Shown here: positions 8,845-40,156 of the stretch, piece by piece
How the letters are laid out: each line of letters starts with the position of its first letter
Position numbering within the stretch: position 1 is the stretch's first letter
DNA from: Thermotogota bacterium
GTDB lineage: Bacteria > Thermotogota > Thermotogae > Thermotogales > Fervidobacteriaceae
Length of the DNA stretch: 64,000 nucleotides
Direction of reading: 5' to 3'
Assembly: GCA_030550315.1 (NCBI GenBank)
Contig: JAUQPP010000001.1
Span: 11,348-75,347, forward strand
Translations under genes and position numbers: made by a program
The notes under the pieces: generated by a model
What the model saw: only the letters and a program-made list of their open reading frames with translations
What the model was told of the DNA's origin: nothing
The model's database searches: none

Positions 8845-8851
8845 CAGACTC

Positions 8852-16940: not shown

Positions 16941-16942
16941 CG

Positions 16943-18261: not shown

Positions 18262-18268
18262 AATCGGA

Positions 18269-18880: not shown

Positions 18881-18901
18881 TAATCTACCTCCCGCCATCG
18901 T

Positions 18902-20155: not shown

Positions 20156-21492
20156 AGTTCCATATCCCCCTTCGAGTAAATTTTTTCAATCATCTCGCCC
20201 AAAGATTCACCGTTCCACTCGATTAGAGAGAATTCAATCCTTACATCGGCGAACCTTTCATCTTTCTCAGCGAGTGAACTAATCCTGTTCTTTATATCGT
20301 CTACGGTTTTTTGAGAGCGTTTAGATTTTGCACCTATTAGTATGTTACAGAACTCATCTACTTTAATCCTACCAACCAGCTCCTGGGAAAATTCCTGAAG
20401 TATTTCACTCAATTTCTTCAAAAATTCGTTTGCGAGAGTTCCACCGTATCTTTTGACAAATTCCCTAAGGTTCACGATTCTTGTTTTTACCAGAGTAACT
20501 GGCAGATCGTTCCTAACTGCAAAATCTATGGATGAGGCCAACTTCGTCCTAAAGAAGGTCATAGTGTAGGTGCCGGTGATACCGTCGCATTCAAGCCCTT
20601 TATTTAAATTGTAGTAATCGTTCACAAGCATGAAAAGATTTCCCAGCGCATCGTTGATATAGAGTAATGTCTTTTGAGTTACCTCAACAAACTTTGGATT
20701 TTCAAAGAGCACAAAGCCAAGTAACTCATCATACCACGAGAATATTTCCTCAAGAACAAAGTTTTCTGACATTTTTCTTGACCCTTGAAAATGCTCCTCA
20801 ACAGGTGAGTAGATACTCAGATCGCTGCTCATTTCCAAAACTCTTTTAACTTCCTCAGGAGCTGCGAGCTCACCTTTCCCGAATCCGTAAATTCTCATTC
20901 GCGAAAGCGATGCAACGACAAAATAAACTGCCTCGAACTCCAAAAGCTCTAAAAATAGTTCATATATCTTTCTGAAAACTGTGAACTCGTCGAATATATA
21001 ACTTGCGTAGCTTAATATTTCGTCCATCAACGTCGCCTTTTTTAAACTTTCGTCAAGTATATCAACCAACTCTCCGTATGGCTCTATGTGAATCTTGTAA
21101 ATCTCCCTCGTCCATTCAATTGCGTAGGGTTGAGCAACAAAAGCCAAGATAGCTCTCTCTATATCTTCTTGCGGGGCAGTTTTCTTAACAAAAGCGTTTA
21201 CACCGCTCTTCTTTGCCCAAAAGGGACTAACCGTTTCATCAGCACCGGTGAGCATAAGGATTCCAATACGCTTGAAGACACTAAAACTTCTAATGAATCT
21301 CGTAAAGTGAATGCCATTGAGCTTGGGCATTACGTGATCAACAATCACCACATCAGGAAGAAAGCTAAAGAATTTATTCAGGCCATCGAGTCCGTCCCTG
21401 GCAACTTCTACGGAATAACCATTCAGCTCTAAGAGATTCTTAAGGTAGCTGCGCCAAACGTCTGAGTCATCAACAACAAGTACTTTTTTCAT
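20152..21492 (-). CDS. Response regulator: REC + linker domain + degenerate GGDEF domain
   Basis: ORF 20152..21513. The likely ATG is at 21492. REC: KVLVVDDS...VIVDHVMPKLNG. C-terminus: DGITGTYTMTFF...VKRYGGTLANEFL...VGRIKVDEFCNILIG, where KVDEF replaces GGDEF. Confidence 0.75.
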   Translation of the reverse strand: MKKVLVVDDSDVWRSYLKNLLELNGYSVEVARDGLDGLNKFFSFLPDVVIVDHVMPKLNGIHFTRFIRSFSVFKRIGILMLTGADETVSPFWAKKSGVNAFVKKTAPQEDIERAILAFVAQPYAIEWTREIYKIHIEPYGELVDILDESLKKATLMDEILSYASYIFDEFTVFRKIYELFLELLEFEAVYFVVASLSRMRIYGFGKGELAAPEEVKRVLEMSSDLSIYSPVEEHFQGSRKMSENFVLEEIFSWYDELLGFVLFENPKFVEVTQKTLLYINDALGNLFMLVNDYYNLNKGLECDGITGTYTMTFFRTKLASSIDFAVRNDLPVTLVKTRIVNLREFVKRYGGTLANEFLKKLSEILQEFSQELVGRIKVDEFCNILIGAKSKRSQKTVDDIKNRISSLAEKDERFADVRIEFSLIEWNGESLGEMIEKIYSKGDMEL

Positions 21493-21502
21493 CTCTCTCC
21501 CC

Positions 21503-22054
21503 TCAGCAAGCATCTCTATTCAACGATTTCAAAATGGATTTGATTTCGTGGAACGGTCTCAATTCACTTCTATTTCCTAGTTCTTGTTGGATGTTTCTTG
21601 GAAGATAGGGGAATTCAGCATCCTCTTGGATTAAGAACCTCACCTTCTTTTTTGATAAAGTCTTTGCTTCGCTCTTTCCGTCGTCTCCAAGACCTCCAAG
21701 AACGATGATAATAAAATTTTCATCGGCTACTTTCTTTAGTGAAAGAAACAGCGTTGAGATCGACGGATGGATTTTTCCCGACCCTTCTTTTACTGTTACC
21801 AAATCGCGTGTTAGGAAAACAATATCCTTACCTCCTGCCGGTAGGTGAATAACGTTTATCAATCTGGTTGGGCTTTTCACAACCACATTTGAAATTTGTG
21901 TCTCCCTTGTTATGTGTTCAGCAAAAGTCTCGATTACCGTACTCGTGAGGTGAATGCATAAAACTACTGGGAAGCGTAGAGGTTCTCCAAGCTTTAAAAG
22001 TTCTATAACTCGTGTGGGGCTACCTGCAGAGCCAACGATGATAACCCTCTTCAT
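21503..22054 (-). CDS. cheB: CheB-type methylesterase catalytic domain only (no receiver domain)
   Basis: 183 aa. Equivalents of the catalytic Ser/His/Asp contexts are present: IIVGSAGSP, VLCIHL, VLGGLGDDG. Confidence 0.7.
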   Translation of the reverse strand: MKRVIIVGSAGSPTRVIELLKLGEPLRFPVVLCIHLTSTVIETFAEHITRETQISNVVVKSPTRLINVIHLPAGGKDIVFLTRDLVTVKEGSGKIHPSISTLFLSLKKVADENFIIIVLGGLGDDGKSEAKTLSKKKVRFLIQEDAEFPYLPRNIQQELGNRSELRPFHEIKSILKSLNRDAC

Positions 22055-23817
22055 TCGACTTCAACCAACCTTTCAATGAGTTTAAGCAACCTTTCGAGTG
22101 GTTCACTCTTTGAAAGGTATCCATCTGCGCCGGCTTCCATACCTTTGATTAACTGTTCTTCTGACAAAGTGCTGAAAATCACAACCGGCAACTTCGGTTT
22201 TACCTCTTTTATACTTTTGGTTGTTTCGAAACCGTCCAATCCAGGCATCTCGACATCGCAAACTACCAGGTCCACATCGAATTTCTTTGAGATTTCTACG
22301 CCTTCTTCGCCGGATTTTGCTTCCAGAACCTCGTAACCAAAAGTTCTAAGAAACTTTGAGAGTATTGACCTGGTTACGAACGAATCGTCGACTATCAGTA
22401 TCGTTCTTTTTTTGCTGGACTTTTCGGCGCGTTTGGAAATCTTACTTACGTCGATTACCGGCAACGGATGGATAAATATATTCTTCACAAAGCCCTTCAC
22501 AAAGCCGTAGGATTCGTTGCTGATTTGTCCGTCAAAAACACCCACGATGTTGTCCACAAGGAGTGCTTTCTTAGCGGACGTGATGAAGCAGAACCTAGGA
22601 TTAGCTGAGGAAAACGAAATATCGTACAGCTTATCCTTGTATTTGACTTTACCATCTACGGTTTGTGCACTCACTATCACTGCTACTAAGTCACTCGTTT
22701 CAACTGCGAAAATCAGTCCATCTGCCTCAATAACAACGACTTTCACAACAAAACTTTTCACAGGAAAATGAACGATGAACTTTGTGCCTCTTCCGGGAGC
22801 CGTGACTACTTCAACATTTCCTCCCCGTGCCATGGCAAAGTTTCTTACTGCATCAAGCCCTACTCCCCTGCCGGCCGTACCGTCAGCGGTATCCTTAGTT
22901 GAGAAACCGGGCACAAATATCACTTCTTCCGGTGGGAGGTGCCCAAGTCCTTTTTCGGTGGCTTTTTTCCTCACCCTTTCAAAGTCGATTCCGGAACCAT
23001 CATCTTCAACTTCGAGATACAACTCTCCACCTTCCAGGTAACTTCTGAGTGTAATTGTACCGTACTCCGACTTTCCTTTTCTTTTCCTTTCCTCCGGAGA
23101 TTCAATACCGTGTGCTATTGCATTTCGCACAAGGTGTACTAAAGAATCTAGCAATACTTGCGAATCCTTTCTTTCCACTTTTTCCTGTCCAATTTGTAGT
23201 TCCAGCTTGACCTTTTTTCGATTTAGCGTAGCTTCTTGAATCACAAGTGTGTCGAAGTTTCGCAAAAGGTCAGAGATTCTAACATAGAAGTTTTCTTCCA
23301 TGATGTTTAACAACCTTGACTTGAGGGTTCGAATTTCCCTGAGAGCATTTTTTGTGTCGTTTCTCATCAGGCTATTCTCGACACTCAATGTTTTGGAAAC
23401 TAGTTCAAATAATACGTGCGAAAAGCTTTCTGAAATTTGTTCCTTTACTACGGAAACTTGGGCACGCTGTTTTCCTTCTAAGATATCCAAAAAGGATCTT
23501 AAATCGTCCTCGGAAATATCCGTCGTTCGGCTTAACAATTCTGGGATGATGGATAACATCCTTGCAAGAAGATCATCTGTAAGCTCGAGTTCACCACTTT
23601 CGTACCTTTTAAAGTAATTCTCAAGGTTATGCATCAAATTTCTGAATCCAACAAGTCCAACCAAACTGGCCGAGCCTTTTATTGTGTGAAACACACGATA
23701 AATTTCGTAAACCAATTCTCGCTCCCTTGTTTCAAGAAACTTTTTAATCATCTCTATTGCACTTTGACCCTTTTCGCGCAATTCCTGAAAAAAGATCTCA
23801 AGGAAGTCGGTACTCAT
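22051..23817 (-). CDS. cheA: Hybrid CheA-type histidine kinase (HPt, HATPase, CheW-like, C-terminal REC)
   Basis: 588 aa. HPt FHTIKGSASLVG; N box HLVRNAIAHGIE; G1 DDGSGID; G2 GRGVGLD; a P5-like region; then REC ILIVDDS...VVCDVEMPGLDG. Confidence 0.9.
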   Translation of the reverse strand: MSTDFLEIFFQELREKGQSAIEMIKKFLETRERELVYEIYRVFHTIKGSASLVGLVGFRNLMHNLENYFKRYESGELELTDDLLARMLSIIPELLSRTTDISEDDLRSFLDILEGKQRAQVSVVKEQISESFSHVLFELVSKTLSVENSLMRNDTKNALREIRTLKSRLLNIMEENFYVRISDLLRNFDTLVIQEATLNRKKVKLELQIGQEKVERKDSQVLLDSLVHLVRNAIAHGIESPEERKRKGKSEYGTITLRSYLEGGELYLEVEDDGSGIDFERVRKKATEKGLGHLPPEEVIFVPGFSTKDTADGTAGRGVGLDAVRNFAMARGGNVEVVTAPGRGTKFIVHFPVKSFVVKVVVIEADGLIFAVETSDLVAVIVSAQTVDGKVKYKDKLYDISFSSANPRFCFITSAKKALLVDNIVGVFDGQISNESYGFVKGFVKNIFIHPLPVIDVSKISKRAEKSSKKRTILIVDDSFVTRSILSKFLRTFGYEVLEAKSGEEGVEISKKFDVDLVVCDVEMPGLDGFETTKSIKEVKPKLPVVIFSTLSEEQLIKGMEAGADGYLSKSEPLERLLKLIERLVEVE

Positions 23818-23870
23818 AGTAACCGCCCCTATCGATTAGTTTTTATTCGAGAAGCGCACGAGATTTCAAC

Positions 23871-24641
23871 TTAAACTTCAATAATCTTGAATGTGCCCAT
23901 ATCCGTTTCAAGCACCTTTTCTCCCTTTTCCGGATGCTCAAGAACAAACCCATTAGCTAACTGGATTTTTCCGGTCCTGTATGCTATGTTCTCGAGTACA
24001 ACGACATGCTCACCATTGTCCAGGTTTATCACTGGAATGATGCGACCGTAATCTATAAAACCGTCGAATTGGTCCACTTTGAATGATGTCATTAGGTTTG
24101 CAGAAAGTATGGTCTTTACTTGGTTTTTTTGTATGGCGTACTTCTCGCCTAACAAAATAAAGCTTCCAATTGATTCCTGTCGCTCTTCGACTTTTTGAGA
24201 AAAACGAGCTTTTACTACGTTCGCATTAACTGGTGCTCTTAGATTGATGAAGTTGTAAACATAATAAATTTTTCCTTCGTGGACAACTATTCCAGAATAG
24301 TGGGATACATCCTTTAGCACATCTTCAGAGCGTGAGTCTTGGGGTGTCTCTGAGAAGAGCTTTTCAGTTAGGGGGGTTGGTGTGCTTTCGACCTCGGCAA
24401 GTATTCGAGTCACACCGAAGGCAAATTTCTGGTAGATTGCAAAGTACTTAAAGGCAGGCATTTCAAGTTCTGCGTGAGTTACTATAGGATAAAGTCGTCC
24501 CTTGTATTCTGCAAATCCGAAAACTCGTTCCCCTTGTGGAGCAGGAACGAAAATCGTACTTACGCCAATTAGTTCGTTTGAAGGAAGAGCCAGACAGTGT
24601 ACACCAACTTTGTGTTCAATTTCACAAAGAAAAAAACGCAT
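23871..24641 (-). CDS. Tandem CheW-like domain protein
   Basis: ORF 23871..24707. The likely ATG is at 24641 after GAAGGTGAG. There are two CheW-like repeats: FFLCEIEHKVGVHCLALPSNELIGV...VFGFAEYKGRLYPIV and SFILLGEKYAIQKNQVKTI...GFIDYGRIIPVINL. Confidence 0.65.
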   Translation of the reverse strand: MRFFLCEIEHKVGVHCLALPSNELIGVSTIFVPAPQGERVFGFAEYKGRLYPIVTHAELEMPAFKYFAIYQKFAFGVTRILAEVESTPTPLTEKLFSETPQDSRSEDVLKDVSHYSGIVVHEGKIYYVYNFINLRAPVNANVVKARFSQKVEERQESIGSFILLGEKYAIQKNQVKTILSANLMTSFKVDQFDGFIDYGRIIPVINLDNGEHVVVLENIAYRTGKIQLANGFVLEHPEKGEKVLETDMGTFKIIEV

Positions 24642-24660
24642 ACTCTCACCTTCACTTAAA

Positions 24661-25749
24661 CTACTTCCTTCCCTTGATAAAGTGAAGCAGCTGCCAAATT
24701 TCGTCATCTGAATGATTCAAAAACGCTGCTTTCTTCAAGTGTTTCTCCGCCGCTTCGTAATTACCTTTTTCCAGTTCCAAAACACCAAGGTATTTCCATA
24801 CAAGGTAATGCGTTGGATATTTTCTCACCAATATTGCTAGGTAATTTTCTGCTTCGCTTAGTATTTTATTTTCCAAGCAGTGTTCAACAATCCTTATCGT
24901 TGGCTCAAGAGCTAATTCGTTTTCCAAATTTTTCGCAATTGCTTCTTTTAGATATTTAACCTCTTGAGTTGATATAAAAGAAGTTTTCGGTCTTTTGTCC
25001 TTAACATGCTTTTCATCGGAAAACTTTGAACTTTTTCTGGATACCTTTTTATAAACGCAAGGACATTCGTTGATAGGTTCAAAGTCTTTCAAAACCGTCG
25101 GAAAATACTCGCCCGATCCTAAAACCAACACCCCGTCGTTCTTAAGCAAGCTGTAAATCTTCCTCACCACGAGTTCCTCGTTTTCGGCATACAACAGTAC
25201 TCGCCTTGCAAAAATGATATCAAAACTCTCGCTAAATGGCACCGTTAAGAAATTACCACTTACGAAAGTAACGTTTGCTTTGTAATCAGATTTGATGCAA
25301 AACTTATCATCGTTTTTTATGAAAAATCTTTCCAGCTCATCTTCGCTCAAAAAACGCACACTCCAGAATTTGTAGCAACCCCTTCTTGCTTCTTCAATCC
25401 TTTGTGGGGATATATCGATACCAGTGATTTTACAGTTCCTACCGGACTCTCTTGCAATGATTGAAAGACTGTAAACCTCTTCACCACGTGAACACCCAAC
25501 AGATAAAATGTTCCACTCGACTTTGTATTGCATGACTTTCTTTAGAAAATCAAACACCTTACGATCCCGAAAGAAGTACGATTCTCCTATTGTAAGATTG
25601 TCCAGAACGAAAATCTCTATAAGTTCTGGTGTCAGTTCATCAATTATACTTTCCAAAAAGTTCAGAAATCTCTTTAACGTTCGCTCACTAACTTTCAATT
25701 TGTGCTTTAAAAGTATACTTCCTACTTGTCTTTCCAGTTTCGAGTTCAC
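24661..25749 (-). CDS. cheR: CheR-type MCP methyltransferase with C-terminal TPR repeats
   Basis: ESYFFRD, ILSVGCSRGEEVYSLSI, ITGIDIS, IIFARRVLLY, and a C-terminal TPR-like region (YLVWKYLGVLELEKGNYEAAEKHLKKA). Confidence 0.85.
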   Translation of the reverse strand: MNSKLERQVGSILLKHKLKVSERTLKRFLNFLESIIDELTPELIEIFVLDNLTIGESYFFRDRKVFDFLKKVMQYKVEWNILSVGCSRGEEVYSLSIIARESGRNCKITGIDISPQRIEEARRGCYKFWSVRFLSEDELERFFIKNDDKFCIKSDYKANVTFVSGNFLTVPFSESFDIIFARRVLLYAENEELVVRKIYSLLKNDGVLVLGSGEYFPTVLKDFEPINECPCVYKKVSRKSSKFSDEKHVKDKRPKTSFISTQEVKYLKEAIAKNLENELALEPTIRIVEHCLENKILSEAENYLAILVRKYPTHYLVWKYLGVLELEKGNYEAAEKHLKKAAFLNHSDDEIWQLLHFIKGRK

Positions 25750-25776
25750 CTGAGAAATATACCTCCAGACGCGAGT

Positions 25777-26402: not shown

Positions 26403-26479
26403 TGGCGTGCCCGGCGGGAGTTGAACCCACAACCTTCAGATCCGCAGTCTGACGCTCTATCCACTTGAGCTACGGGCAC
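26403..26479 (-). tRNA. tRNA-Arg (anticodon GCG)
   Basis: The reverse complement GTGCCCGTAGCTCAAGTGGATAGAGCGTCAGACTGCGGATCTGAAGGTTGTGGGTTCAACTCCCGCCGGGCACGCCA folds as a cloverleaf. Anticodon stem is TCAGA/TCTGA, loop CTGCGGA. CCA is encoded. Confidence 0.85.
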
Positions 26480-26509
26480 GCACTTTCTTAGAGCCTATTA
26501 CAAAAAAAT

Positions 26510-26601
26510 TGGCGGAGAGAGAGGGATTCGAACCCTCGGTGGAGAAACCTCCACACTTGCTTAGCAGGCAAGCGCCTTCGACCACTCGGCCATCTCTCCG
26601 C
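26510..26601 (-). tRNA. tRNA-Ser (anticodon GCU), long variable arm
   Basis: The reverse complement is GCGGAGAGATGGCCGAGTGGTCGAAGGCGCTTGCCTGCTAAGCAAGTGTGGAGGTTTCTCCACCGAGGGTTCGAATCCCTCTCTCTCCGCCA. Anticodon loop is CTGCTAA. CCA is encoded. Confidence 0.9.
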
Positions 26602-26891: not shown

Positions 26892-27332
26892 ATGAAAAAG
26901 TTACTGGTTCTCTCGTTGTTGGCGGTTGCGTTCTTAGTGTTTGCGGCAGGTGACGTACGTATACCGTTCACAAATAACAGAGCAACCTGGAGTCAAACGC
27001 TGAACTTTGCCGTCAGACAGTACATCAGAGTTATCTGGGAGTATGACGAAACAGCACCTGTTATGGTTGACGAAACAACAAAGGTGGCGTCCGTTGGTAC
27101 ACTCACTTTCCAATCCAACAAGAGGTTTAGCGTGTTTTACAGCACGGGAAGTTTACCAGAGGGTGTAGGAATCGGTAGTGTGAAGATTGGAACGGTGACG
27201 ATCGGTAACAGTGAAGGTTCGGCCACACCGGTAACAAATAAGACACTTTCTGGAAACTTTACGGTTGAATTTTGGAGCCTTCCTGACCAAGACTTCACAA
27301 TAAGGATCGATTTCAACTTCATCGCAATGTAG
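26892..27332 (+). CDS. Small secreted beta-rich protein, paralog 1 (candidate fibre or surface subunit)
   Basis: ORF 26871..27332. ATG at 26892 follows GGAGG. Signal peptide MKKLLVLSLLAVAFLVFA. It shares YIRVIW.YDE, FSVFY, TIGN, TPV.NK.LSG and DF.I.I.FNF.A with the next gene. Confidence 0.7.
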   Translation: MKKLLVLSLLAVAFLVFAAGDVRIPFTNNRATWSQTLNFAVRQYIRVIWEYDETAPVMVDETTKVASVGTLTFQSNKRFSVFYSTGSLPEGVGIGSVKIGTVTIGNSEGSATPVTNKTLSGNFTVEFWSLPDQDFTIRIDFNFIAM

Positions 27333-27430
27333 TTTTCTTTAGATATGGTCGGGATTTGTATTAAAAAGCGGAAGCCGTCAGGCTTCCGCTTGTAATTTTT
27401 GTGAGTTTTCGAAAAGGAGGATTTTTTAGA

Positions 27431-27844
27431 ATGGCCAAACTCCTGCGATTAGTTCTTCTAAATCTTTTACTTGCTGCTCAATCAGTAATGCCAAATTACG
27501 TACGCATCGTGTGGACTTACGATGAAAACGCCTGGATTAATGTTGATCCGTTCACATCGACAGGCATCAACGTTAGAGTAGGATACCTCTATATAGAATC
27601 GCCGGTCAAATTTTCGGTTTATGTAACCTACAGTGTAACAGATATATCTGGTATGAATCCTGTTCCGGTGAGGTTGACGAGCGTTACTTTAGGAAACAAA
27701 AGTATCTCTATGAACCCAAGTTATCCAACTCCTGTGAATAATAAATTTTTGTCTGGAATGCTCTATCTGGGACTTTTGTTTATCGAACCCATCAAAATAG
27801 ATGATTTCAGGTTAACTTTAACTTTCAATTTTTCCGCGCTGTAA
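27431..27844 (+). CDS. Small secreted beta-rich protein, paralog 2
   Basis: ORF 27401..27844. ATG at 27431 follows AAGGAGG. Hydrophobic N-terminus MAKLLRLVLLNLLLAAQS. Clear paralogy to 26892..27332. Confidence 0.7.
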   Translation: MAKLLRLVLLNLLLAAQSVMPNYVRIVWTYDENAWINVDPFTSTGINVRVGYLYIESPVKFSVYVTYSVTDISGMNPVPVRLTSVTLGNKSISMNPSYPTPVNNKFLSGMLYLGLLFIEPIKIDDFRLTLTFNFSAL

Positions 27845-27845
27845 C

Positions 27846-29297
27846 CTACCAGCGAAGTGCTAAACCGAATCCGAAGTTCTGATGACTGTCCATGAGAGTC
27901 ACAAAACCTATAGTCCCCCAGCTATATTTGAGCCCCAACTCAACTCCCAGATACGTCGAACCTTCCTTTTCATAGCTATAGTAGAGTGTTGTGTAAAGTG
28001 TTTTTAAAAACTCAAGACCAAGTTGAGCCAGAAGTACGAACGAAAATTGTTTTTTCTGTACCTCGAACATGAGCTTTGGTATCAGACTGAATGTTCCGAA
28101 ACTCAGTTTTTCAGCTAAGATGATATAAACCTCTTCCTGTGGTGGCGAAGAGTAACCAAGCCCAACCCACATCATACTGGTTATTCTTGATATATATTCG
28201 ACTCTTTTGAGAGCTAGCATGTGAATTGTGGTCCCTGTATTCAATTTTAAGTTTACGAGTGTTGAATCACTAGAAAAACTGAAGGACAATTCACCGGGAA
28301 TTTTGAAAACTACGTAAAAAGCTGTCTGATTGTCTTGTTGACACTCTCGGGAACTTTTTTCTGAAGCTGGAACCGAAAATTTTTCTGGTCGCACTGTGGA
28401 AAGTTCTTCAGGAATATCCAGATAACTTATTATCAGATGATAGTCATCCTTAGACTCAGCAACAAATTCAAACTGGTGGGTTTTTGAGCTGTCGATTTGA
28501 TACGATGTTACTTCCATATCCGTTTCTATCTCAAACTTGGAGGCACTGAACCTTATAAGAAGGTTTTCGTTAACTTGAAAACTGGCCATATTTTGTTTTT
28601 CTTCAATCTGCATTCCGACTTCTGAGAAAGTAACCAGCCCATAAGTGGTTCTCACCATTCGCGCTTTAGTAAGGACCTTTAACAATTCCTTCAAGGTATT
28701 TCGTTCCAACTGGCCTGTTGTGGAGATAAGAGCTTTGGATACACTTACCACGTAAATAACCATTCTGTAGCTATCCTTCTGTGAATCAATACGCTCTAAG
28801 GTTTGGAGCAAATGCTTGCCAGTTTCATCGGATGTGCCAAGAATGATGACCCTATCATCGTAAGCAAAACACTCGACTCCGAAAGTTTTTATCATTTCTG
28901 CAAGTTCTTGGGATTCTCTGTGTCTTGTTACATACTCTCTGAAAGTTAGTTTCGAGCTTTTCCAAGATTGGTCAAAGAGAACATAGACTTTATTTCCAAT
29001 CCGTAAATAATCGAGATTTGCAGCTTGCGAGAGAAATCTTAGGACAGTTTCTAATTCAGCGTTTTTCAGTTGTAGGTTAACTCTCCTCTTTGCGATGTCA
29101 TTACTGTAGACAAATGTTACGTCAAACTCTTTTGCGATGTGCTCCAATGCGTTGGTAAGCTCTGTATCAGTAAAGGAAATGTCAACTTGGGCCAGTATCG
29201 TAGCACTAATCGTTAAAATCATTAAAAATGCCACTACTGCGAATCGAGGATTACTGATTGTGAGTATTTTGAAAAGTAACTTCAACAAGCTAATCAA
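27846..29297 (-). CDS. Secretin-N-like (N0/STN + N1) protein with a divergent C-terminal beta-barrel-like region
   Basis: 483 aa. N0/STN-like: VDISFTDTELTNALEHIAKEFDVTFVYSNDIAKRRVNLQLKN...VLRFL. N1-like: REYVTRHRESQELAEMIKTFGV..DDRVIILGTSD. The C-terminus ends ...NFGFGLALRW (terminal aromatic, OMP-like). It lacks the conserved secretin C-terminal LG..P.LG.LF box. The start may be TTG 29288 rather than 29297. Confidence 0.65.
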   Translation of the reverse strand: MISLLKLLFKILTISNPRFAVVAFLMILTISATILAQVDISFTDTELTNALEHIAKEFDVTFVYSNDIAKRRVNLQLKNAELETVLRFLSQAANLDYLRIGNKVYVLFDQSWKSSKLTFREYVTRHRESQELAEMIKTFGVECFAYDDRVIILGTSDETGKHLLQTLERIDSQKDSYRMVIYVVSVSKALISTTGQLERNTLKELLKVLTKARMVRTTYGLVTFSEVGMQIEEKQNMASFQVNENLLIRFSASKFEIETDMEVTSYQIDSSKTHQFEFVAESKDDYHLIISYLDIPEELSTVRPEKFSVPASEKSSRECQQDNQTAFYVVFKIPGELSFSFSSDSTLVNLKLNTGTTIHMLALKRVEYISRITSMMWVGLGYSSPPQEEVYIILAEKLSFGTFSLIPKLMFEVQKKQFSFVLLAQLGLEFLKTLYTTLYYSYEKEGSTYLGVELGLKYSWGTIGFVTLMDSHQNFGFGLALRW

Positions 29298-30390
29298 CCT
29301 CCACCATTATGAGAAAAATGATGTAACGTGTTTCTTTTTCGTAATATTTCCACCTGAAGAGACTGCCAATGAATGGAAGGTTTCCCAAGATGGAGATTCC
29401 GCCTTCCTTCTCAATCTTCTTTTCATAAGAGATTGCGCCGAGAACGTAAGGTACTCCGTAGTCTAAGCTGACGTTGGAAGACAACGTTGCCCCTCTTTTT
29501 GCGTTCTCTGAGTTTGTGCCAAACAAAATACCGCTGTAGCTGAAGTTCAGAGTTATGTGGCACTTTTTCGCGGCAAACCTAGGAGTGACTGTTACCTCAA
29601 AGACCTCGGGGTTCTGAACGTTTGAAACCTTACCTTCAGTTATTTGTTGAGTTTGAAGCTGATTTTGAAGCGTGATCTTGTATGTTCGTCCATTTTGTGC
29701 CGTCAACTGACCTGTGCTCAAGATGCGCATTCGCTGGGAATCTTCTTTTCCCTGGAACAAAAGGTTCACGTAACTTCCACTAATAGGTAGTTGCAGAATA
29801 TTGATATGTAAACCTGTCAAATTACCAGTACCAGGAGTCAGAGCGAAGGAATCTAAGAAACCCTCAGAGACATCAAGTACTTTGAATATTATCTTTGCTT
29901 CTCGGGAGGGTGTGTCCAGTCTTGTTATTAGGTTTGCAATCATAGATCCGATGTTAATGGGGGCGTAGATTAAGAGTCGATTTGAATCATTCGTTGATAA
30001 GATGTAGTCCTGTAAAGACTTCGGCAACGAAGAGCGCAAAATTTCGGCATCTGCATGAAAAACCGGTACTTCGAGTAACGTTGCTACCTTAAAAAAATTT
30101 GGGTTAGTTGGATTCATAGTACCCACATAATAAATCCCATCAATTTTTGTCCAGTAATAGTTAAACGGCTTAAGGACAATCTCGATGATATTTTCAACAT
30201 TCTCAGATTCGAATTCAACTGTCACTGTGCCGGTCAAATTCGGTTCGTAGACTATAGGAACACCAGCCTCGGCAGCGATAATGTTCAACGCATCTTTTAT
30301 GTTAAGATTGTAGAAGCTGACGCTCAAACCAAAGATGGTGCTACTTAAAAAAGTAAACAAGAAAAAAGTAAACAAGAACACTACCAGCAA
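29290..30390 (-). CDS. Minimal secretin-family outer-membrane channel (N0 + N1 + secretin domain)
   Basis: 366 aa. N0-like: LSVSFYNLNIKDALNIIAAEAGVPIVYEP.LTGTVTVEF. N1-like: VPVFHADAEILRSSLPKSL...NRLLIYAP. Secretin C-terminal signature: GGISILGNLPFIGSLFRW....RYIIFLI. A possible upstream in-frame CTG at 30417 lies 6 nt after GGAGGG. Confidence 0.8.
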   Translation of the reverse strand: MLVVFLFTFFLFTFLSSTIFGLSVSFYNLNIKDALNIIAAEAGVPIVYEPNLTGTVTVEFESENVENIIEIVLKPFNYYWTKIDGIYYVGTMNPTNPNFFKVATLLEVPVFHADAEILRSSLPKSLQDYILSTNDSNRLLIYAPINIGSMIANLITRLDTPSREAKIIFKVLDVSEGFLDSFALTPGTGNLTGLHINILQLPISGSYVNLLFQGKEDSQRMRILSTGQLTAQNGRTYKITLQNQLQTQQITEGKVSNVQNPEVFEVTVTPRFAAKKCHITLNFSYSGILFGTNSENAKRGATLSSNVSLDYGVPYVLGAISYEKKIEKEGGISILGNLPFIGSLFRWKYYEKETRYIIFLIMVEVD

Positions 30391-30450
30391 CCAAGTCTCG
30401 AGGTTTTTACTTTTCAGAAAAAACCCTCCTTCGACATTAGGATAATCCTA

Positions 30451-30936
30451 CTACAAACCACGTTCGATGAATTTATCGGCTCCGTACGGTTTGAATCTAA
30501 TAATAATATCTGAGGAGGGAATAATACTATCCATTGTTACCTCGAATACTTGTTGAGGTATGAGCACGATTTCTTCATCGTTGACTTTTTGTCCCCTGAT
30601 TAGTATTTCAATGGTGAGCACACAATCTCCGTTATTTTCAAACCTCAAAGTAGACATGTTTGCCTTATCGAGCTTCCTGACATCGAGTGAAGGATTGACA
30701 ACTTTTCCACGCAAAATAACCATGAGCTCCCTTATAACCCTTTCCTCGGTACCTCCTTCCGAAAATATCTTTCCAAACACTAGTCTATCTCCGATAAAAT
30801 CGAAATCCTTTTCCAAAGTCCTAATGTTAAAGCCGTACTCTTTGAAGGGAAGAATTGTTGTTGATTTGGGCGAAACGGAAACTAAATTGTTGTTGAATTC
30901 CACGGAGATTTTCGCGCGCTTGGGGGAGAGATTCAC
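30451..30936 (-). CDS. Hypothetical beta-rich protein (161 aa) in the secretin locus
   Basis: GTG start with a weak RBS and no obvious signal peptide. It is in the same frame as the upstream gene, separated from it by one TAA. Confidence 0.5.
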   Translation of the reverse strand: MNLSPKRAKISVEFNNNLVSVSPKSTTILPFKEYGFNIRTLEKDFDFIGDRLVFGKIFSEGGTEERVIRELMVILRGKVVNPSLDVRKLDKANMSTLRFENNGDCVLTIEILIRGQKVNDEEIVLIPQQVFEVTMDSIIPSSDIIIRFKPYGADKFIERGL

Positions 30937-30999
30937 AACCTTTGCAGGGAAAGTATTGTTCTTCGTTTTTTCAGTTATGAGTACAATGTCTGGTAAGAA

Positions 31000-31848
31000 T
31001 TAGTAAACGGCGTAATTTGCCACGTTGTTGTTCGAGAATGTGAACTGAGCGAATGTTTCTACGTCAAAAGATCTTGCCTGTAGAGTGAAACCCAAAGTTC
31101 CTTCGGGTAGGATGTAAGGTGTGTAGAATTCCAAGGTAGAGGTTTTCCCGGGGAAAACCACTAAGTCTAAGCTTTCTATTTTATGTGAGTATACACTTGT
31201 TTTTAGTTCTTTCGAGTGAATGTCGAGCGTACCAGTCGGTATGAAAACTCCGTTTCCGTTGTTTTTAAACTTGATCCTGACCAACGTACCAAAATCGGGA
31301 TAACCTTCGACTTTTTCTTCGTTCAAATCTTGCAACTTGACTTCCGTAACTGTAATAGAATAGTTCAGCGGAAGTTGCTTGAGCCTTATGAAGAACGGAA
31401 TTATATAGTTCAGCCTGACCTCAACTGTGCCTTGAGAAACTCCCTCCTGACGAAGTTTTACAGCGAAACTTCCAACACCACCTGGGAAACTCGATGGTAC
31501 GTTAAAGTTTAACGTAACCTCGCGCTGTTCGTTGGGTTCCAAGATAAATTCCGATTCGCTTGGCGTGACGTATTCCTTCAAAGTAAAGGGATAATCAGGA
31601 GCGTTGAAAATGAATTTTCCCTCATCAGTTATCAAATCAATTATTTCGACTGTTACCCTTGAATTTCTCGGTAGATCATTCTTCACAAAAAAAGAATAAC
31701 TGAACTTGTACTTTTCGGTTGTGATTCGATAGATAAGGCTCGGATAGATCTCCAAAGCGTGTGCAGTTGAGCTTAGCCAGAAGAGTGTAAGCATAGCAAA
31801 GATTATAACTGGCAGTTTAGCTCTCATCTTCTGTATGGACATTTTCAA
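31000..31848 (-). CDS. Secreted two-domain beta-sandwich protein, PapD-like/Ig-like (putative periplasmic chaperone or DUF916-like surface protein)
   Basis: 282 aa. Signal peptide ...LFWLSSTAHA. Alternating beta-strand patterns include LEIYPSLIYRI, FSYSFFVKN, RVTVEIIDL, FILEPNEQREVTLNFNVP and VEVRLNYIIPFFIRL. The call is pattern-level resemblance only. Confidence 0.55.
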   Translation of the reverse strand: MKMSIQKMRAKLPVIIFAMLTLFWLSSTAHALEIYPSLIYRITTEKYKFSYSFFVKNDLPRNSRVTVEIIDLITDEGKFIFNAPDYPFTLKEYVTPSESEFILEPNEQREVTLNFNVPSSFPGGVGSFAVKLRQEGVSQGTVEVRLNYIIPFFIRLKQLPLNYSITVTEVKLQDLNEEKVEGYPDFGTLVRIKFKNNGNGVFIPTGTLDIHSKELKTSVYSHKIESLDLVVFPGKTSTLEFYTPYILPEGTLGFTLQARSFDVETFAQFTFSNNNVANYAVY

Positions 31849-32645
31849 GCCTCCTCCGCTAAAATTTGTGTGACAAGCTGCCTTCTGAACAAAATTTGTT
31901 CGAGAATCTCCAAAGCTTCCTCTTCTTTGACCAACATGAGCTTGGCAAACGACTGCATCCTTCTTTTCACACCTTCAAAAGTTTTGAGTGAATCTTCGCT
32001 ACTTTCTAGAAGAAGAAGCCAATAGTCGTTCAATCTCACCACCAAATCGCCCTTCCTAAAGCTAAAGCTTTCGATTGTCAGGTTCCCATCAAATTTTGCT
32101 AAAGCAAGCACAAAAGGCTTTCTTCTCATCTTCAGTTGCTGCTGCACCAACACATAGGCTTTTTGTAGATTGGAAACAACGTATGTTTCCGACTCGTGCC
32201 TGAGGTACTGGAGAATCATCTCGTTGATACGTCTTCTGAACGTTTCAATCCATTTTTCAGAAAATCCCAGTAAAAATTCATCGGGTTTGAACATTTTTAC
32301 CTTTTCCGCATTTCCAGGTAACGAAAGAAGTTCCAACAATTCATCGTAATCTGTTCGGAAGATCTTCCGGTTTACCCTTATAAACTCTCTCTCACTCGAA
32401 AGTTCTAACGTCGATATTCCAAGGTTTCTTCTAAGATAGTAAAGTTGAACATTCAAGTTTTTGTGGACATAACTATCAGGGAAACCTTCGTAAAACAATT
32501 GGCCAATTTCCGATATTGAAACAAAGTCTGTTCGTTTGACAAGAATGTACACAAGTATTAGAAGGGCCTTTTTCGACAAGAAATTTGATATCTCGTCACC
32601 AGCTTTAAAAATCTGAAGCTGCCCAAAGGTTTTAACGTAAAACAT
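31845..32645 (-). CDS. SARP-type transcriptional regulator (OmpR/SARP winged helix + BTAD-like region + extra C-terminal domain)
   Basis: ORF 31845..32666. The likely ATG is at 32645. wHTH: MFYVKTFGQLQIFKAGDEI...LSKKALLILVYIL...NLNVQLYYLRRNLG. BTAD-like: FRTDYDELLELL...FLLGFSEKWIETFRRRI. Confidence 0.6.
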   Translation of the reverse strand: MFYVKTFGQLQIFKAGDEISNFLSKKALLILVYILVKRTDFVSISEIGQLFYEGFPDSYVHKNLNVQLYYLRRNLGISTLELSSEREFIRVNRKIFRTDYDELLELLSLPGNAEKVKMFKPDEFLLGFSEKWIETFRRRINEMILQYLRHESETYVVSNLQKAYVLVQQQLKMRRKPFVLALAKFDGNLTIESFSFRKGDLVVRLNDYWLLLLESSEDSLKTFEGVKRRMQSFAKLMLVKEEEALEILEQILFRRQLVTQILAEEA

Positions 32646-33434
32646 CTCTCGGTTTGTTCCCTCCACTGACGAATTTTTCGAGTTCCGAGCTATTTATGTA
32701 AATTAAGTATTCATCACTGGACAAAGGAAAGATAGAACTGGCAACTTTGAAAAGATCAAGCCGTTGTGCGTTGTTCACTGAGACAATTCTGACAGGCACT
32801 ATATTTCTATCAGTGTTGCTTTCCATAAACAAGTTCCTTAAGGTTGGCACCTTTACTTTGTGAAATTCTAAAATTTTCGGAAGGTCTGAGAAAGTTAACC
32901 AAGTTGAAAGAGTAGTCGCAAGTAGGTTGATTAGTTTAATTCTGGTATGAAGATTTAATCTTCTGAAAATCAGAAGCTTTATTAGTGTGTTTGCCAGCAA
33001 GTCTTCCAACAACTCACGATACGTAATAACCCAAAAATTATCGATGAAGTGCAGGAAAGGTGTTCTATAGAGTTGAAAGAGTTCATTTAGGTACTGGTTG
33101 ATTTCTAAATCGCTATGCTCAAAGCGTTGCAACAATGACAAGACTTCATGTAATCGGAGTACGTCAACGTCGACGTTAAGTTCCAGGAAGATTTCCTTGT
33201 TGGATGAACGTACAACGCAAAGGGGAGAAACTTTTCTTCCTAGACTTCGCAAAATCTTCCTTACGTTTTTCTCATCTAAAGGCTCAAGATAATCCGCAGC
33301 AAGTATCCGGGAAAGAGTGTGAAAAGTTCCTCTCCCGTTATTTACAATTAGGTACGCAAAAACTATCGTCTCACTTTTTGTGAGCTTGGTCTTGGCTTCT
33401 CTTCGATTATAAAACCATCAAGGAATCTTACCAT
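32632..33434 (-). pseudogene. Second SARP/BTAD-type regulator, reading frame disrupted near the 5' end
   Basis: ATG 33434 opens MVRFLDGFIIEEKPRPSSQKVRR*, with the stop at 33365-33363. A different frame, open from 33417, continues ...KTKLTKSETIVFAYLIVNNGRGTFHTLSRILAADYLEPLDEKNVRKILRSLGRKV (wHTH) into the track ORF 32632..33252, which carries the BTAD-like NVDVDVLRLHEVL...LFQLYRTPFLHFIDNFWV. That frame has no canonical start upstream of TTG 33252. Confidence 0.5.
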
Positions 33435-33549
33435 ACCTCTCTACCTTCAGGTTGGAATCCAGAATTTAGTGTCGGCTAACTATTTTTTATTATATCACGT
33501 CACGCTGATATCTGCAAAACAAGCATTTTGATGAAAGAAAGCGATGTTA

Positions 33550-33558: not shown

Positions 33559-33641
33559 ATGAAAAGCAAATAGTTAGGCACGTTGATCTGAAGATTTAAG
33601 CTTAATATATGACCATGCTGAAAAGTTGGGAGGTGCCGGAA

Positions 33642-35066
33642 ATGCCTCAGTTGCGAAAGACGAAAATAGTTGCGACCTTAGGACCAGCCACAGAATCTGA
33701 GGAGGGTATTCTGAGACTGTTAAAATGCGGGGTCGATGTTTTCAGGTTGAATTCCTCGCACGAGACAATAGAAGTGCACAGGGAACGAATTCGGCGACTA
33801 AAATCTATTCGGCAACGTGGGTATAATTTCGCAATATTGTTGGATCTTGCTGGGCCAAAGATTCGTACTGGAAAATTTGAGACGGAGTACGTAACCCTTG
33901 AAGATGGGGCGGAAGTCGAAATCGTTTGTGGTGAGGAATTTGTCGGTAATGCAAAGAGATTTTGGATAAACTACGATAGGTTGTACGAAGAAATCAAACC
34001 TTTCGAACACATACTAATTAACGATGGTGCTATTGATCTTGAAGTTAAAGACGTGATAAAGTCCCAAAAGACTGTTTTATGTACTGTGAAACGTGGTGGT
34101 ACCATTACGCACAAAAGGGGTGTGAACCTTCCCGGCGTCGACATTTCGATACCTTCTGTGACTGACAGAGACAGGGAATTCATCAAAATGGGAAATGAAG
34201 AAATGATAGATTATTTTGCTCTTTCGTTTGTTAGAAAGGCCAAGGACGTCAAAGATGCGAAAGCGCTTACCGGCATCCCGATCGTTGCTAAAATTGAAAC
34301 GGCCCAAGCGTTGGATAATCTTGAAGAAATAATTCTGGCTTCCGATGCCGTTATGGTTGCTCGCGGTGATTTAGGAGTGGAGATCCCCGTGGCACAAGTT
34401 CCTATTGCGCAAAAAAGGATTATCGAAATCGCAAACCTTTACAAGAAGCCAGTCATTACGGCTACACAAATGCTCGAAAGCATGGTTCAGAATCCAACAC
34501 CAACACGTGCCGAAATAACGGACATTTCCAACGCTATACTTGATGGTACCGATGCGATAATGTTATCAGCTGAGACTTCGGTTGGAAAGTACCCATGTGA
34601 AGCTGTAAAGGTCATGGACGAGGTTGCAAGAAATACGGAAGCGTATATGGAGGAGTACGAAAACTACAAAATCGAATGGCTGAGGGAATACAGTTCATCG
34701 CTAGATACACCGAGTGCGATATCCTACGCTGCGGTTACGCTCGCGAGGAATGTCGAGGCCAAGCTCATAATTACCGCAACGAGTACCGGAGCAACGGCAA
34801 TTCATGTGGCCAAATTCAAACCATCCGTTCCCGTTCTTGCGGCAACGCACGACGACACCACTTACCATAGACTCTCACTTGTTTGGGGCGTTATTCCTGT
34901 CAAGATTGAGGCAAGTCTGACTACGGATCAGATGATTGAACGCGTGATTCAGGTAGCCAAAGAAACAGCAATGGTAAAGAGTGGAGACACGATTGTTCTT
35001 GTGGCTGGGATACCGTGGGGCAAACCTGGAACAACAAACACAGTGCAGGTTCACGTGATATCTTAA
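33642..35066 (+). CDS. pyk: Pyruvate kinase
   Basis: ORF 33609..35066. ATG at 33642 follows GGGAGGTG. Motifs KIVATLGPAT, FRLNSSHE, AKIE, MVARGDLGVEIP and TQMLESM are present. Confidence 0.92.
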   Translation: MPQLRKTKIVATLGPATESEEGILRLLKCGVDVFRLNSSHETIEVHRERIRRLKSIRQRGYNFAILLDLAGPKIRTGKFETEYVTLEDGAEVEIVCGEEFVGNAKRFWINYDRLYEEIKPFEHILINDGAIDLEVKDVIKSQKTVLCTVKRGGTITHKRGVNLPGVDISIPSVTDRDREFIKMGNEEMIDYFALSFVRKAKDVKDAKALTGIPIVAKIETAQALDNLEEIILASDAVMVARGDLGVEIPVAQVPIAQKRIIEIANLYKKPVITATQMLESMVQNPTPTRAEITDISNAILDGTDAIMLSAETSVGKYPCEAVKVMDEVARNTEAYMEEYENYKIEWLREYSSSLDTPSAISYAAVTLARNVEAKLIITATSTGATAIHVAKFKPSVPVLAATHDDTTYHRLSLVWGVIPVKIEASLTTDQMIERVIQVAKETAMVKSGDTIVLVAGIPWGKPGTTNTVQVHVIS

Positions 35067-38229: not shown

Positions 38230-38625
38230 TGCTCCAGTGTGAAAGATACTTCCGAGGAACCAGCACGATTCTACAAATAGATTAACAAAAGTTTAGTAAA
38301 ATTCCTAATATTTCGACGAATTCGACAAAATTTCCTGGAGATGTTGCTCCGTTTTCGTGGGGAATTAGTTACGCGTTTCGCAGCTTTGAAGATTTTGTAA
38401 AATGCCGTTAACATGGTATTTTTGCTCTGCGATCCTGCTGTGCTGATTTTCAGACGCGATACTGTAATCTACTACACTCACATTTCTCCGTTGCTGCAGT
38501 TTGTTTTTGAGCATTCGTAGCAAGATTTTCAACATGGACGATGTTTTCACTCAACTTAAACGATAATGAAACAATAATGTTCTCCGATCGCTTAACTGCA
38601 GCGCTTGACTTTAAAATGCCTTCTC

Positions 38626-38648
38626 AACAGCCTCCGCTGTTTTATTTT
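38626..38648 (+). terminator. Orphan hairpin + T-tract in the non-coding region downstream of priA
   Basis: AACAGC-CTCC-GCTGTT followed by TTATTTTC. It lies about 400 nt after the priA stop, so its function is uncertain. Confidence 0.3.
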
Positions 38649-38856
38649 CGGAAATTAGTCTTGCACATTCAATATTTCCTGATCTTTTCGTAAAGTTATC
38701 CGCGAGATTTTGCAACGGTTTGCGCATTCCCTGAGTTTTTTCTACAGCATTTTTCCGCGAAGTTGACCTGCTCTCCGCATTAAAATTCGAGGATTCTTCG
38801 TGCGGTATGCTAGGAAACTAACCTTAACCACACCGGACTGGCCAAGAACCCTACTC

Positions 38857-39929
38857 CTATTCCATTATTGCAATTCGAAGATACCTTTTTGAGTATGTTC
38901 TCAACGCTCCATTTACCTCAGCATTTATCACGGCTCCGCATTTTCTGCAAACATACAATAGCCCCCACACCTTGAACATGTTTGTGATGTGTACGATTCG
39001 CTTACTTGTATCACCGTTGTTATCCCTTTGTTTAACTGACCTATTACTATCGTACCTATTCCGTTGCTTAAACAGTATCCAACGATTTTCTGTGATGCTT
39101 TGTGCACGAACTGATATAGTTTTGCCTGTGGCTGTATAGCTTACGCAAGCGTTTAGATGTTTTGAGTTTTTGTCTATCAAGCATGGCTTTTAGCTTTGCC
39201 GTGGCCTTGTTGATTAATCTGAGCTTGGGCAAGATTACCTTTCAATCGATGATAAAGCTTCTTGTTCCAGAGCACGTTGCAAAGTTACTAACTCCAAGTC
39301 AATGGCTAAAGACTTGTTAGTATCCACGCGAATTTGTTTTTCTTGGTCTCTGAGAACATCGATAGTTTCTTGTAGATTATTCTAAGTGAGTAGCTGATGT
39401 GCCGAATGCAGCGATAGAGTTCTTGGTAACTCTATCCAAAAGTACCCGGACTCGGTTCCTTGAGAGGATTTTAAACACTGCTTTGGTTGTTTGGAAAGTG
39501 CCAAGCGAAGTTTCCGACCGATGACTCTAAAGCTTTGGTCTTTCCAAACGACAGGAAAATGACCTTTCTTTGGTAGCTATCGTAGACGATAGGTGTGAAT
39601 ATTGAAGGTATTTTTCCAAGCGAAAGGTTACGGGCAAAGAAATTATCCTTGAGCTTATATTCAAGTTCATAGATAGACACACCGTCTTTGTCAACCTCAT
39701 AGTTTGCAACGTTCCAAAGTTCAGAGGCAGAGTAAGTAAGGTGACCAAAAATGATGACAAGTTTCTTATCGGTTTTACGTGAAATATTTAAGACAAAAGC
39801 ATTTAGTTACAAACTCTGGCATTCTTCAATGTACCTCTTAATAGTTTCAGCAGAGACGTTGCCGTGTATTGCGGCAAAACAAGAATCTGCCAACAAATGT
39901 TTTGAATTACGCAATGTCGGAAATTTCAT
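38857..39929 (-). pseudogene. tnpB: Decayed IS200/IS605-family tnpB (OrfB/IS1341-like) remnant, no tnpA
   Basis: TnpB-like pieces are scattered over different frames: ..AIDL then (frame shift) GVSNFATCSGTRSFIID*; FVHKASQKIVGYCLSNGIGTIVIGQLNKGI...SESYTSQTCSRCG; then (frame shift) CRKCGAVINAEVNGALRT. There is also an in-frame TAA after residue 40 of the first ORF. The positions expected to hold RuvC acidic residues also look mutated (IVIGQL, NAEVNGA). Confidence 0.65.
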
Positions 39930-40156
39930 TCTAAGTTTTCGTGCGGTTGTTCCTTAATATTTAATTAATTTATATTGTTTTAGCGAAATGTTCTTTCCGC
40001 ACTTTGGAATCCAAATGCAAGATCAAAAATCTGCATACTCGCATTAAAATTCGGGGCTTTAGAGCTTTAAAGCGTTGTAACGCCAAGGTTTGCCCTGAGA
40101 TTAAAGATTTTAGATAACGGTTTCAAGTTTTTTACCTCACCTTGCAACAATCTCTG

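Follow-up and report, generated by a model that had tools for sequence, protein, structure and literature searches.

To our knowledge, every secretin described so far serves an ATP-driven machine, that is, the type II secretion system (T2SS), the type IV pilus (T4P), Tad and Com systems, the type III secretion system (T3SS) and the filamentous phages, and the donor-strand pili of diderm bacteria need an usher. According to Abby et al. (2016), the Thermotogae are the only diderm clade without any of the known secretion systems (TXSScan), and these authors suggested that toga-specific secretion systems exist (PMC4793230). Here, we describe a cassette located in a 64,000-nucleotide stretch of DNA from a Thermotogota bacterium of the Fervidobacteriaceae (GenBank assembly GCA_030550315.1, contig JAUQPP010000001.1, positions 11,348 to 75,347 of the forward strand). 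This whole stretch is hereafter called the window, and coordinates refer to it unless another locus is named. The cassette encodes a minimal secretin, a second protein with secretin-like N-terminal domains, an Ig-like protein, small secreted proteins and two regulators. Judging from its sequences and predicted folds, we tentatively propose that it constitutes a Thermotogota-specific, self-contained and ATP-independent "chaperone-secretin" route for small pilin-like surface subunits. No earlier description of such a cassette was found in the literature searched, and it provides a concrete, testable candidate for the question raised about secretion in the Thermotogae (PMC4793230).

Word-indexed homolog searches of 5.8 billion proteins yielded only one to three close relatives per query, and when 1.84 billion cluster representatives were scanned exhaustively with HMMER for relatives of the 463-aa Ig-like protein, only 18 matched at E <= 1e-3, nine of them at E <= 1e-10. 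The set formed by two regulators, a three-domain Ig-like protein, a secretin, a protein with a secretin-like N-terminus (the STN paralog) and two to four small secreted paralogs recurs in at least nine loci of Fervidobacterium, Thermosipho and a Thermotoga-like lineage. One member of a small-protein cluster comes from F. thailandense, which makes it probable that the window stems from a close relative. It is present as a five- to eight-gene set in the window and L001 (a metagenome contig that is 99.89% identical to window positions 19294-40387, with 23 differences), in L002-L006, L010 and L008, and in L009/L011-L013. The Ig-like gene is followed directly by the secretin gene and this, in turn, by the STN paralog gene in L002, L003, L010, L008 and the Thermosipho metagenome-assembled genomes L009/L011-L013. 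Among four Fervidobacterium genomes, including F. islandicum H-21 (L004-L007), the same succession is found in L004-L006, L007 being the exception. Two paralogous regulator genes and two to four small paralogs are present wherever the contig is long enough; in L008, where the product of an adjoining gene falls into one cluster with a protein of a Thermotoga sp., only one regulator, a BTAD protein, was seen. Thermosipho and L008 have their genes in an order unlike that of the other cassettes.

The flanks vary and consist of housekeeping genes (parts of methylmalonyl-CoA mutase, oxaloacetate decarboxylase, spermidine synthase, cobalamin genes, pyk/priA). In none of the nine loci do they contain genes for an ATPase, platform, prepilin peptidase or usher, and no pil or gsp gene lies beside the cassette in any of the nine contexts. 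The ratio of nonsynonymous to synonymous substitution rates (dN/dS) for six genes, window versus L003, ranges from 0.12 to 0.24. Its conservation, seen at nine loci or more, and these dN/dS values show that the cassette is not a chance association. Homologues of the small proteins are linked to the secretin genes in nine of 11 loci, covering three genus-level lineages; a lack of such linkage would have counted against the reading given in an earlier note on this DNA. The nine are intact cassettes and include every locus with recovered flanks, and the other two, L011 and L012 of Thermosipho, are fragments truncated upstream. Judged by the relatives found in the sequence searches, the cassette is specific to Thermotogota. 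In the source annotations all its products but one are named "hypothetical protein"; the exception, the secretin, is entered as "secretin and TonB N-terminal domain-containing protein".

The components of the cassette and their boundaries in the window are as follows.

26403-26599: tRNA-Arg and tRNA-Ser genes, beside the cassette in the window
26510-26599: tRNA-Ser gene
26892-27332, plus strand: A-type small secreted protein (putative subunit), 146 aa; open reading frame (ORF), with a gene call of identical length in L001
27366-27391, plus strand: terminator-like hairpin between the A-type and B-type genes
27431-27844, plus strand: B-type small secreted protein (putative subunit), 137 aa; ORF, family alignments
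27846-29297, minus strand: 483-aa envelope protein with signal peptide, STN/N0 and N1-like domains
29290-30390, minus strand: minimal secretin, 366 aa, with N0/STN, one N-domain and the secretin domain
30451-31848, minus strand: Ig-like protein, 463 aa, a single gene comprising ORFs 31000-31848 (282 aa) and 30451-30936 (161 aa)
31000-31002, minus strand: premature TAA at codon 283, at the boundary between domains D2 and D3 of the Ig-like protein
31845-32666, minus strand: regulator 2, 273 aa, SARP-like
32632-33434, minus strand: regulator 1, frameshifted, with a leftover 206-aa ORF at 32632-33252
33489-33518, minus strand: promoter-like site TTTGCA-18-TATAAT with a TG, upstream of regulator 1 (consensus match only)
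33609-35066: pyk, the other boundary of the cassette

All ORFs listed in the earlier note exist, and its placement of the locus between tRNA-Ser and pyk was confirmed at both boundaries. The genes form two convergent transcription units: the regulators, the Ig-like protein, the secretin and the 483-aa protein are encoded on the minus strand, for which the site at 33489-33518 is a candidate operon promoter, and the small Sec-exported paralogs on the plus strand. The stop codons of the B-type gene and the 483-aa gene are only 1 nt apart (27844-27848), without a terminator in between; the two convergent transcription units must overlap or collide. The flanks had been described as devoid of ATPase, platform and usher genes, and indeed none was found within ~10 kb to the left or right, as judged from the Pfam marks of L001.

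Some cassettes have additional neighbours. A gene for a 563-aa subtilisin-type Peptidase_S8 adjoins the subunit genes in L010 (6663-8354), whose cassette is low in GC (27%), and in L008 a Peptidase_S41 gene lies ~0.6 kb past the BTAD regulator gene. In Thermosipho (L013 8120-8446; also L009, L011 and L012) the STN paralog gene is followed by one for a 108-aa predicted multi-pass membrane protein, which has no counterpart in the Fervidobacterium cassettes.

The A-type and B-type proteins correspond to the two paralogous signal-peptide proteins of about 140 aa whose genes had been noted to converge on the others; they are ~35% identical and have Sec-type signal peptides, in whose sequences no prepilin motif is present. 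Across the loci three types of small protein occur, of which A and C have an N-terminal extension (WSQxLxF) and B does not; the window encodes only A and B. The A-type protein combines a conserved N-terminal extension of ~20 aa (WSQTLxF) with a pilin-like beta-sandwich core that ends in FxFxxM/F, the B-type protein shares this core, and the C-termini of the small proteins are all hydrophobic or aromatic (FTFxPF, FNPTVTF, FSPTVYW). An AlphaFold2 model of the A-type protein, built from 21 sequences, has a mean predicted local distance difference test score (pLDDT) of 83.4, with values above 88 for the core (residues 41-146) and of ~65 for residues 21-40 (GDVRIPF...WSQTLNF), which are highly conserved and follow the signal peptide. 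When this model was compared with the PDB using Foldseek, 35 of the top 50 matches were chaperone-usher subunits (Caf1, SafA, CsuE, FimA/F/G/H/I, CfaE, SefD and HdaB), with a best E-value of only 8e-3 and TM-scores of 0.46-0.48; two more of the top 50 were archaeal cannulae, which are also donor-strand fibres. By contrast, the viral structure library gave only scattered, incoherent matches of low TM-score. The possibility that the small proteins are 8-stranded outer-membrane barrels was rejected, as the model is a sandwich resembling pilins. We regard the A-type protein as the candidate major subunit and the B-type protein as a candidate minor or tip subunit.

The hairpin between the two genes has an 11-bp stem with seven G-C pairs and is followed by a T-run. 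Hairpins of unrelated sequence hold the equivalent position in L005 (15273-15247) and L010 (5966-5939). A hairpin after the gene for a major pilin is usual, and is expected where a highly expressed major subunit is followed by minor ones. The element is thus a candidate attenuator that may set the ratio of major to minor subunit.

The AlphaFold2 model of the Ig-like protein (18 sequences; pLDDT 90.1, predicted TM-score 0.79) consists of a signal helix and three all-beta domains, D1 (30-155), D2 (163-271) and D3 (279-461). The first Foldseek matches in the PDB were the tandem ASH/PapD-like domains of ciliary proteins (E 1e-14), which are multi-domain matches of low TM-score. The best two-domain bacterial matches were the chaperones CsuC and CfaA of chaperone-usher systems, which account for 11 of the top 50 (E 4e-9 to 2e-7; target-normalised TM-score 0.55-0.63, in alignments of ~250 columns with a root-mean-square deviation (RMSD) of 6-7 Å). 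The Enterococcus faecium WxLIP structure 9i1y_B was matched as well (E 4e-8). The two-domain Ig-like boomerang fold of the chaperone-usher chaperones is thus present at the level of the fold, as detected by Foldseek. At the sequence level, the family has sub-threshold Pfam matches to WxLIP_PGBD (DUF916), DUF1102 and Cep192/ASH, the last of which we take to belong to the PapD-like clan of Pfam, and a PDB sequence-profile search gave nothing significant and no PapD match. The earlier description of a chaperone-like Ig-fold protein therefore stands in terms of fold, but not of PapD membership by sequence, and the protein has three domains. D1 ends in a conserved strand of unusual hydrophobicity (LNYIIPFFIR). 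Taking the model as a guide, we suggest that this protein may act in the periplasm as a chaperone or adaptor.

L014 (JGI 3300031521, 2956-9977) encodes a protein (P0013, E ~1e-5) that is remotely related to the Ig-like protein and has two domains, with WxLIP matches below threshold. Its gene lies among those for three small unknown proteins, and next to these is the gene for an 826-aa protein with T2SS-T3SS_pil_N (24.4 bits), SdrD_B-like and CarboxypepD_reg-like domains. L014 may be another cluster of an Ig-like partner and small secreted paralogs, in this case without a secretin.

The secretin domain is the only family membership of the cassette that holds at the sequence level. The 366-aa protein reaches 42.4 bits with PF00263 (cut-off 27.5), has a weak STN/N0 match in Pfam and carries the GNLPFIGSLF box, and its family profile matches the PilQ, GspD, pIV and InvG structures in the PDB, so that its recognition as a minimal secretin with the C-terminal box proved correct. 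It aligns over its full length with phrog_1012 (M13 pIV; E 4.5e-19). The closest NCBIfam family is the PilQ model (TIGR02515), although the score of 60.9 bits is far below the cut-off of 284.35 and no pil genes occur at the nine loci; with the GspD model (TIGR02517) it scores 27.1 bits versus a cut-off of 351.35, it has only N0 and one N-domain, and no gsp genes are nearby. The score with SctC is likewise far below the family cut-off. This secretin, which is always found with the cassette and never with pil or gsp genes, is therefore not an ordinary PilQ or GspD, in agreement with what had been supposed.

The 483-aa protein had been counted as the second member of a secretin pair, and this has to be corrected. 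Its STN/N0 domain (29.8 bits, above the cut-off) and a FecR_C match (39 bits) are recognised by Pfam, and hhalign relates its N-terminal ~170 residues, comprising N0 and an N1-like domain, to the paralogous part of the secretin (probability 97%, E 6e-11). However, Pfam, hhalign and a PDB profile search revealed no secretin domain in the C-terminal 300 aa, and this region has no family match; compared with the PDB, the family matches only PilQ N0 and FpvA-type STN domains. There is thus one secretin and an N0/N1 paralog with a different C-terminal domain, which is possibly an outer-membrane beta-barrel. The terminal Trp, to which attention had been drawn, is invariant in the alignment.

It is conceivable, although unlikely, that the cassette is an accessory secretin module that uses T4P-like or T2SS-like machinery (PilB/PilC/PilD, pseudopilins) encoded elsewhere in the genome, with the small proteins as cargo; we consider the associated idea that the Ig-like protein is a GspC/PilP-like periplasmic adaptor on the secretin N0 domain to be equally improbable. 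As far as we know, every known secretin operates with an ATPase and a platform, and the GspC HR and PilP domains are also beta-sandwiches. The nearest structures to the secretin profile are those of PilQ and GspD, PilQ also being the nearest NCBIfam model, and pilB, pilC and pilD are present in Thermotoga genomes together with two or three pilQ-like genes (PMC5637354). However, the cassette never adjoins a pil or gsp gene in nine contexts, and the scores with both models fall far short (60.9 versus 284 and 27 versus 351). Moreover, the signal peptide of the Ig-like protein looks cleavable by sequence, the protein has neither a membrane anchor nor a lipobox, its fold matches are chaperones and WxLIP, and the would-be cargo is pilin-like, not enzyme-like.

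Similarly unlikely is the view that the cassette is a diderm counterpart of the WxL/Csc clusters of Gram-positive bacteria, forming a non-polymeric surface complex or toga layer for adhesion or substrate binding, as is the corollary that the secretin merely gives the Ig-like and small beta proteins access to the surface. WxL clusters typically encode one WxLIP and two small secreted partners, between which strand insertion has been predicted (PMC10599100). The WxLIP_PGBD/HBD domains are the only recurrent, albeit sub-threshold, Pfam signal of the Ig-like family and its remote relatives, and the Foldseek match to 9i1y_B mentioned above points in the same direction. Against this, the score with the WxLIP family (PF06030) is 14-21 bits for a cut-off of 27.3, the model lacks the C-terminal transmembrane helix of WxLIP proteins and has a third domain, no WxL domain was detected by Pfam in the small proteins, and the fold of the latter draws polymerising pilins instead of WxL-like proteins. 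A filamentous (inovirus-like) prophage remnant that retained a pIV-type secretin is very improbable and largely refuted: the full-length alignment with phrog_1012, the pIV-like minimal size and the adjoining tRNA genes in the window would fit, but there is no other PHROG match in the cassette and hence no phage family besides the secretin, no Zot/pI, replication or integrase gene, no flanking direct repeat and no relative in 2.9 million viral contigs, and the cassette has been kept across genera under purifying selection.

We tentatively favour the chaperone-secretin route, because the two independent fold matches agree, the cassette contains no energy source and the linkage with the secretin is strict. 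According to this proposal, the small subunits would traverse the inner membrane by Sec and would be bound in the periplasm by the Ig-like protein, probably through beta-strand complementation that involves the hydrophobic last strand of D1 (LNYIIPFFIR). The N0/N1 domains of both the secretin and its paralog would then receive them, and they would cross the toga via the secretin pore. Outside, the A-type protein would polymerise, its conserved N-terminal extension, which is poorly placed in the monomer model, entering the next subunit, and the B-type protein, which lacks the extension, would cap the distal end. Assembly would be driven by folding energy instead of ATP, as in chaperone-usher and curli systems. 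Put in this full form, as an undescribed pathway in which a periplasmic chaperone of Ig fold passes donor-strand, pilin-like subunits on to the minimal secretin and the N0/N1 protein that partners it in the toga, and which produces fibres without ATPase, platform or usher, the proposal is somewhat more doubtful than in the general form given at the outset. Even the general form is held tentatively because we infer every mechanistic step from folds and gene context. The view of the earlier note that the locus is a self-contained export and assembly module is backed by the linkage and the fold matches, and none of the three tests by which that note proposed to refute it did so, but the chaperone and pilin memberships were not found at the sequence level and the gene count has changed.

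Several observations weigh against the proposed route. We know of no precedent for a secretin that functions without a cytoplasmic ATPase and a platform. Nothing at E <= 1 was found with PapD_N (PF00345) or PapD_C (PF02753) in the Ig-like protein of the window or its orthologs, and the small proteins have no sequence match in Pfam or the PDB, including the fimbrial families PF00419 (Fimbrial) and PF05229 (SCPU). A basic pair of the PapD Arg8/Lys112 type is not evident, R153 and K155 being invariant only among the Fervidobacterium-type sequences. It should also be noted that Ig-like sandwiches are widespread folds, that the RMSD in the chaperone matches is 6-7 Å, and that the Foldseek E-values of the small protein are weak (best 8e-3, TM-scores 0.46-0.48). 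Furthermore, the cassette has decayed repeatedly, for example in the window, L001, L004, L006 and L007, and is therefore dispensable. Finally, T4P genes elsewhere in Thermotoga genomes could supply the machinery (PMC5637354).

The damage in the window concerns two genes. The 282-aa and 161-aa ORFs, previously taken for separate genes, are parts of a single 463-aa gene split by the TAA at 31000-31002, and its product has 456-473 aa in all intact related cassettes. A C to T change at 31002 turned CAA into TAA; L001 has CAA, and all intact related cassettes have a sense codon at this position. Regulator 1 does begin at ATG 33434 (MVRFLDGFIIEE...), as had been stated, and this start agrees with the N-termini of the 262-289-aa orthologs, but its reading frame is lost ~15 codons in, near 33385-33400, probably through a 1-nt deletion, and resumes as the 206-aa ORF, for which L001 gives an identical call. 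With this stop codon and this frameshift the lineage therefore carries disabling-looking changes. In this genome, the cassette is probably impaired, with an Ig-like protein that ends after D2 and a frameshifted regulator 1, either by true mutations or by assembly errors. The C-terminus of the secretin is intact in the window and L001 carries a 1-bp insertion there (~11033); since L002 has the matching end, the window version is the ancestral one. Lesions were also seen in other copies: the C-type subunit gene is frameshifted in L004 (10099-10527) and truncated in L006 (14016-14315), and in L007 (9983-11037) the regulators and a broken Ig-like gene are left, the secretin, STN paralog and subunit genes being gone.

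The regulators had been classed as two SARP proteins. In regulator 2, a winged-helix region at the N-terminus precedes a short, helical region that is BTAD-like, and regulator 1 is a distant paralog of it (hhalign E 1e-4). The window proteins have no Trans_reg_C or BTAD match at the Pfam thresholds, the orthologs show a weak N-terminal Trans_reg_C (14-21 bits versus a cut-off of 26.2; E 0.002-0.06 for those of regulator 2), and PDB sequence-profile searches with the regulator families gave nothing significant. However, the hidden Markov models of the regulator 2 and regulator 1 families match a 345-aa protein of L008 (E 4e-12 and 4e-7, respectively), which has a BTAD domain (PF03704) at 41.4 bits versus a cut-off of 22.1. 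We call both regulators SARP-like because of this transitive homology to a protein with a genuine BTAD domain, while recognising that they fall below the thresholds themselves.

Directly to the left of the cassette, a chemotaxis-like cluster is encoded on the minus strand (~16000-25750), with genes for an MCP, a response regulator with GGDEF, CheB, a Hpt/HATPase/REC hybrid kinase, a 278-aa unknown protein and CheR with TPR, as assigned from Pfam marks on the near-identical contig L001. Further on, 1.9 kb (38230-40156) are without a called gene. In this region, the minus-strand ORF fragments 38857-39180 and 38928-39107 contain CxxC Zn-ribbon-like motifs ("SQTCSRCGG", "VCRKCGAVINAEVNGA"), and by sequence these fragments look like a decayed TnpB pseudogene of the IS200/IS605 type; this region also holds five of the 23 differences that separate the window from L001. 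The idea that the cassette is a genomic island was rejected, as no flanking direct repeats or att-like sites were found beside the tRNAs.

If the chaperone-secretin route is verified, the Thermotogota would have their first dedicated system for envelope export and assembly, and its secretin would be the first one shown to function apart from the families of type IV filaments, T3SS and phages. In addition, a functional context would become available for five new protein families, and donor-strand fibres of thermophiles are attractive as very stable biomaterials.

The cassette can be compared with several of the systems described so far. Like the chaperone-usher systems (Csu CsuC/CsuA-B, CFA/I CfaA, Caf1M/Caf1, Saf and type 1 Fim), it has Sec-dependent subunits of ~120 aa with a pilin-like fold, a periplasmic tandem Ig-like protein with the fold of CsuC and CfaA, a hairpin after the major-subunit gene and no ATPase, and some of its subunit paralogs have an N-terminal extension and one does not. 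Unlike them, it has no usher (PF00577) in any locus, its outer-membrane parts being a secretin and an N0/N1 paralog, and its chaperone-like protein has a third Ig domain. Also unlike them, it shows no sequence similarity to PapD_N/PapD_C or the fimbrial families, lacks an evident Arg/Lys cleft pair and is confined to Thermotogota. With the WxL/Csc clusters of Firmicutes (WxLIP = DUF916 + DUF3324, PF06030 and PF11797) it shares a secreted perpendicular-Ig protein beside at least two small secreted partners, a weak sequence signal with clear fold similarity (9i1y_B), and the proposed insertion of a strand into the partner (PMC10599100). However, the WxL hosts are monoderm and lack a secretin, WxLIP has two domains and a C-terminal transmembrane helix, and the WxL partners carry WxL domains that are absent from the small proteins of the cassette.

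As in GspD, PilQ and pIV secretins, the secretin domain scores above the Pfam cut-off, N0/STN is present and the whole protein aligns collinearly with the profile of pIV. It differs from these in the lack of cognate ATPase, platform, pseudopilin, prepilin and Zot genes in nine contexts, in scores far under the PilQ, GspD and SctC cut-offs, and in its constant pairing with an N0/N1 paralog without a detectable secretin domain. The likeness to curli (type VIII; csgBAC/csgDEFG) is a functional analogy only: as proposed here, the cassette would be Sec-dependent and ATP-independent like curli, and both encode an outer-membrane channel and a periplasmic factor together with a regulator, with candidate or known major and minor subunit paralogs in a separate unit, but there is no homology to CsgG, CsgE, CsgF or CsgA, and Ig-like sandwiches stand against beta-solenoid amyloid repeats. 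The usher-less donor-strand fibres (Pyrodictium CanA, archaeal bundling pili, TasA) resemble the cassette in their thermophile hosts, in strand complementation without an ATPase, as it is proposed for the cassette, and in the CanA match (TM ~0.47), a similarity at the fold level only, but they lack a secretin and a dedicated Ig-like partner. Thus, membership of the chaperone-usher, WxLIP, PilQ, GspD and pIV-phage groups fails in each case on at least one defining feature. If our reading is right and a secretin with chaperone-like and pilin-like proteins suffices, the cassette would indicate that the secretin and donor-strand principles can be combined.

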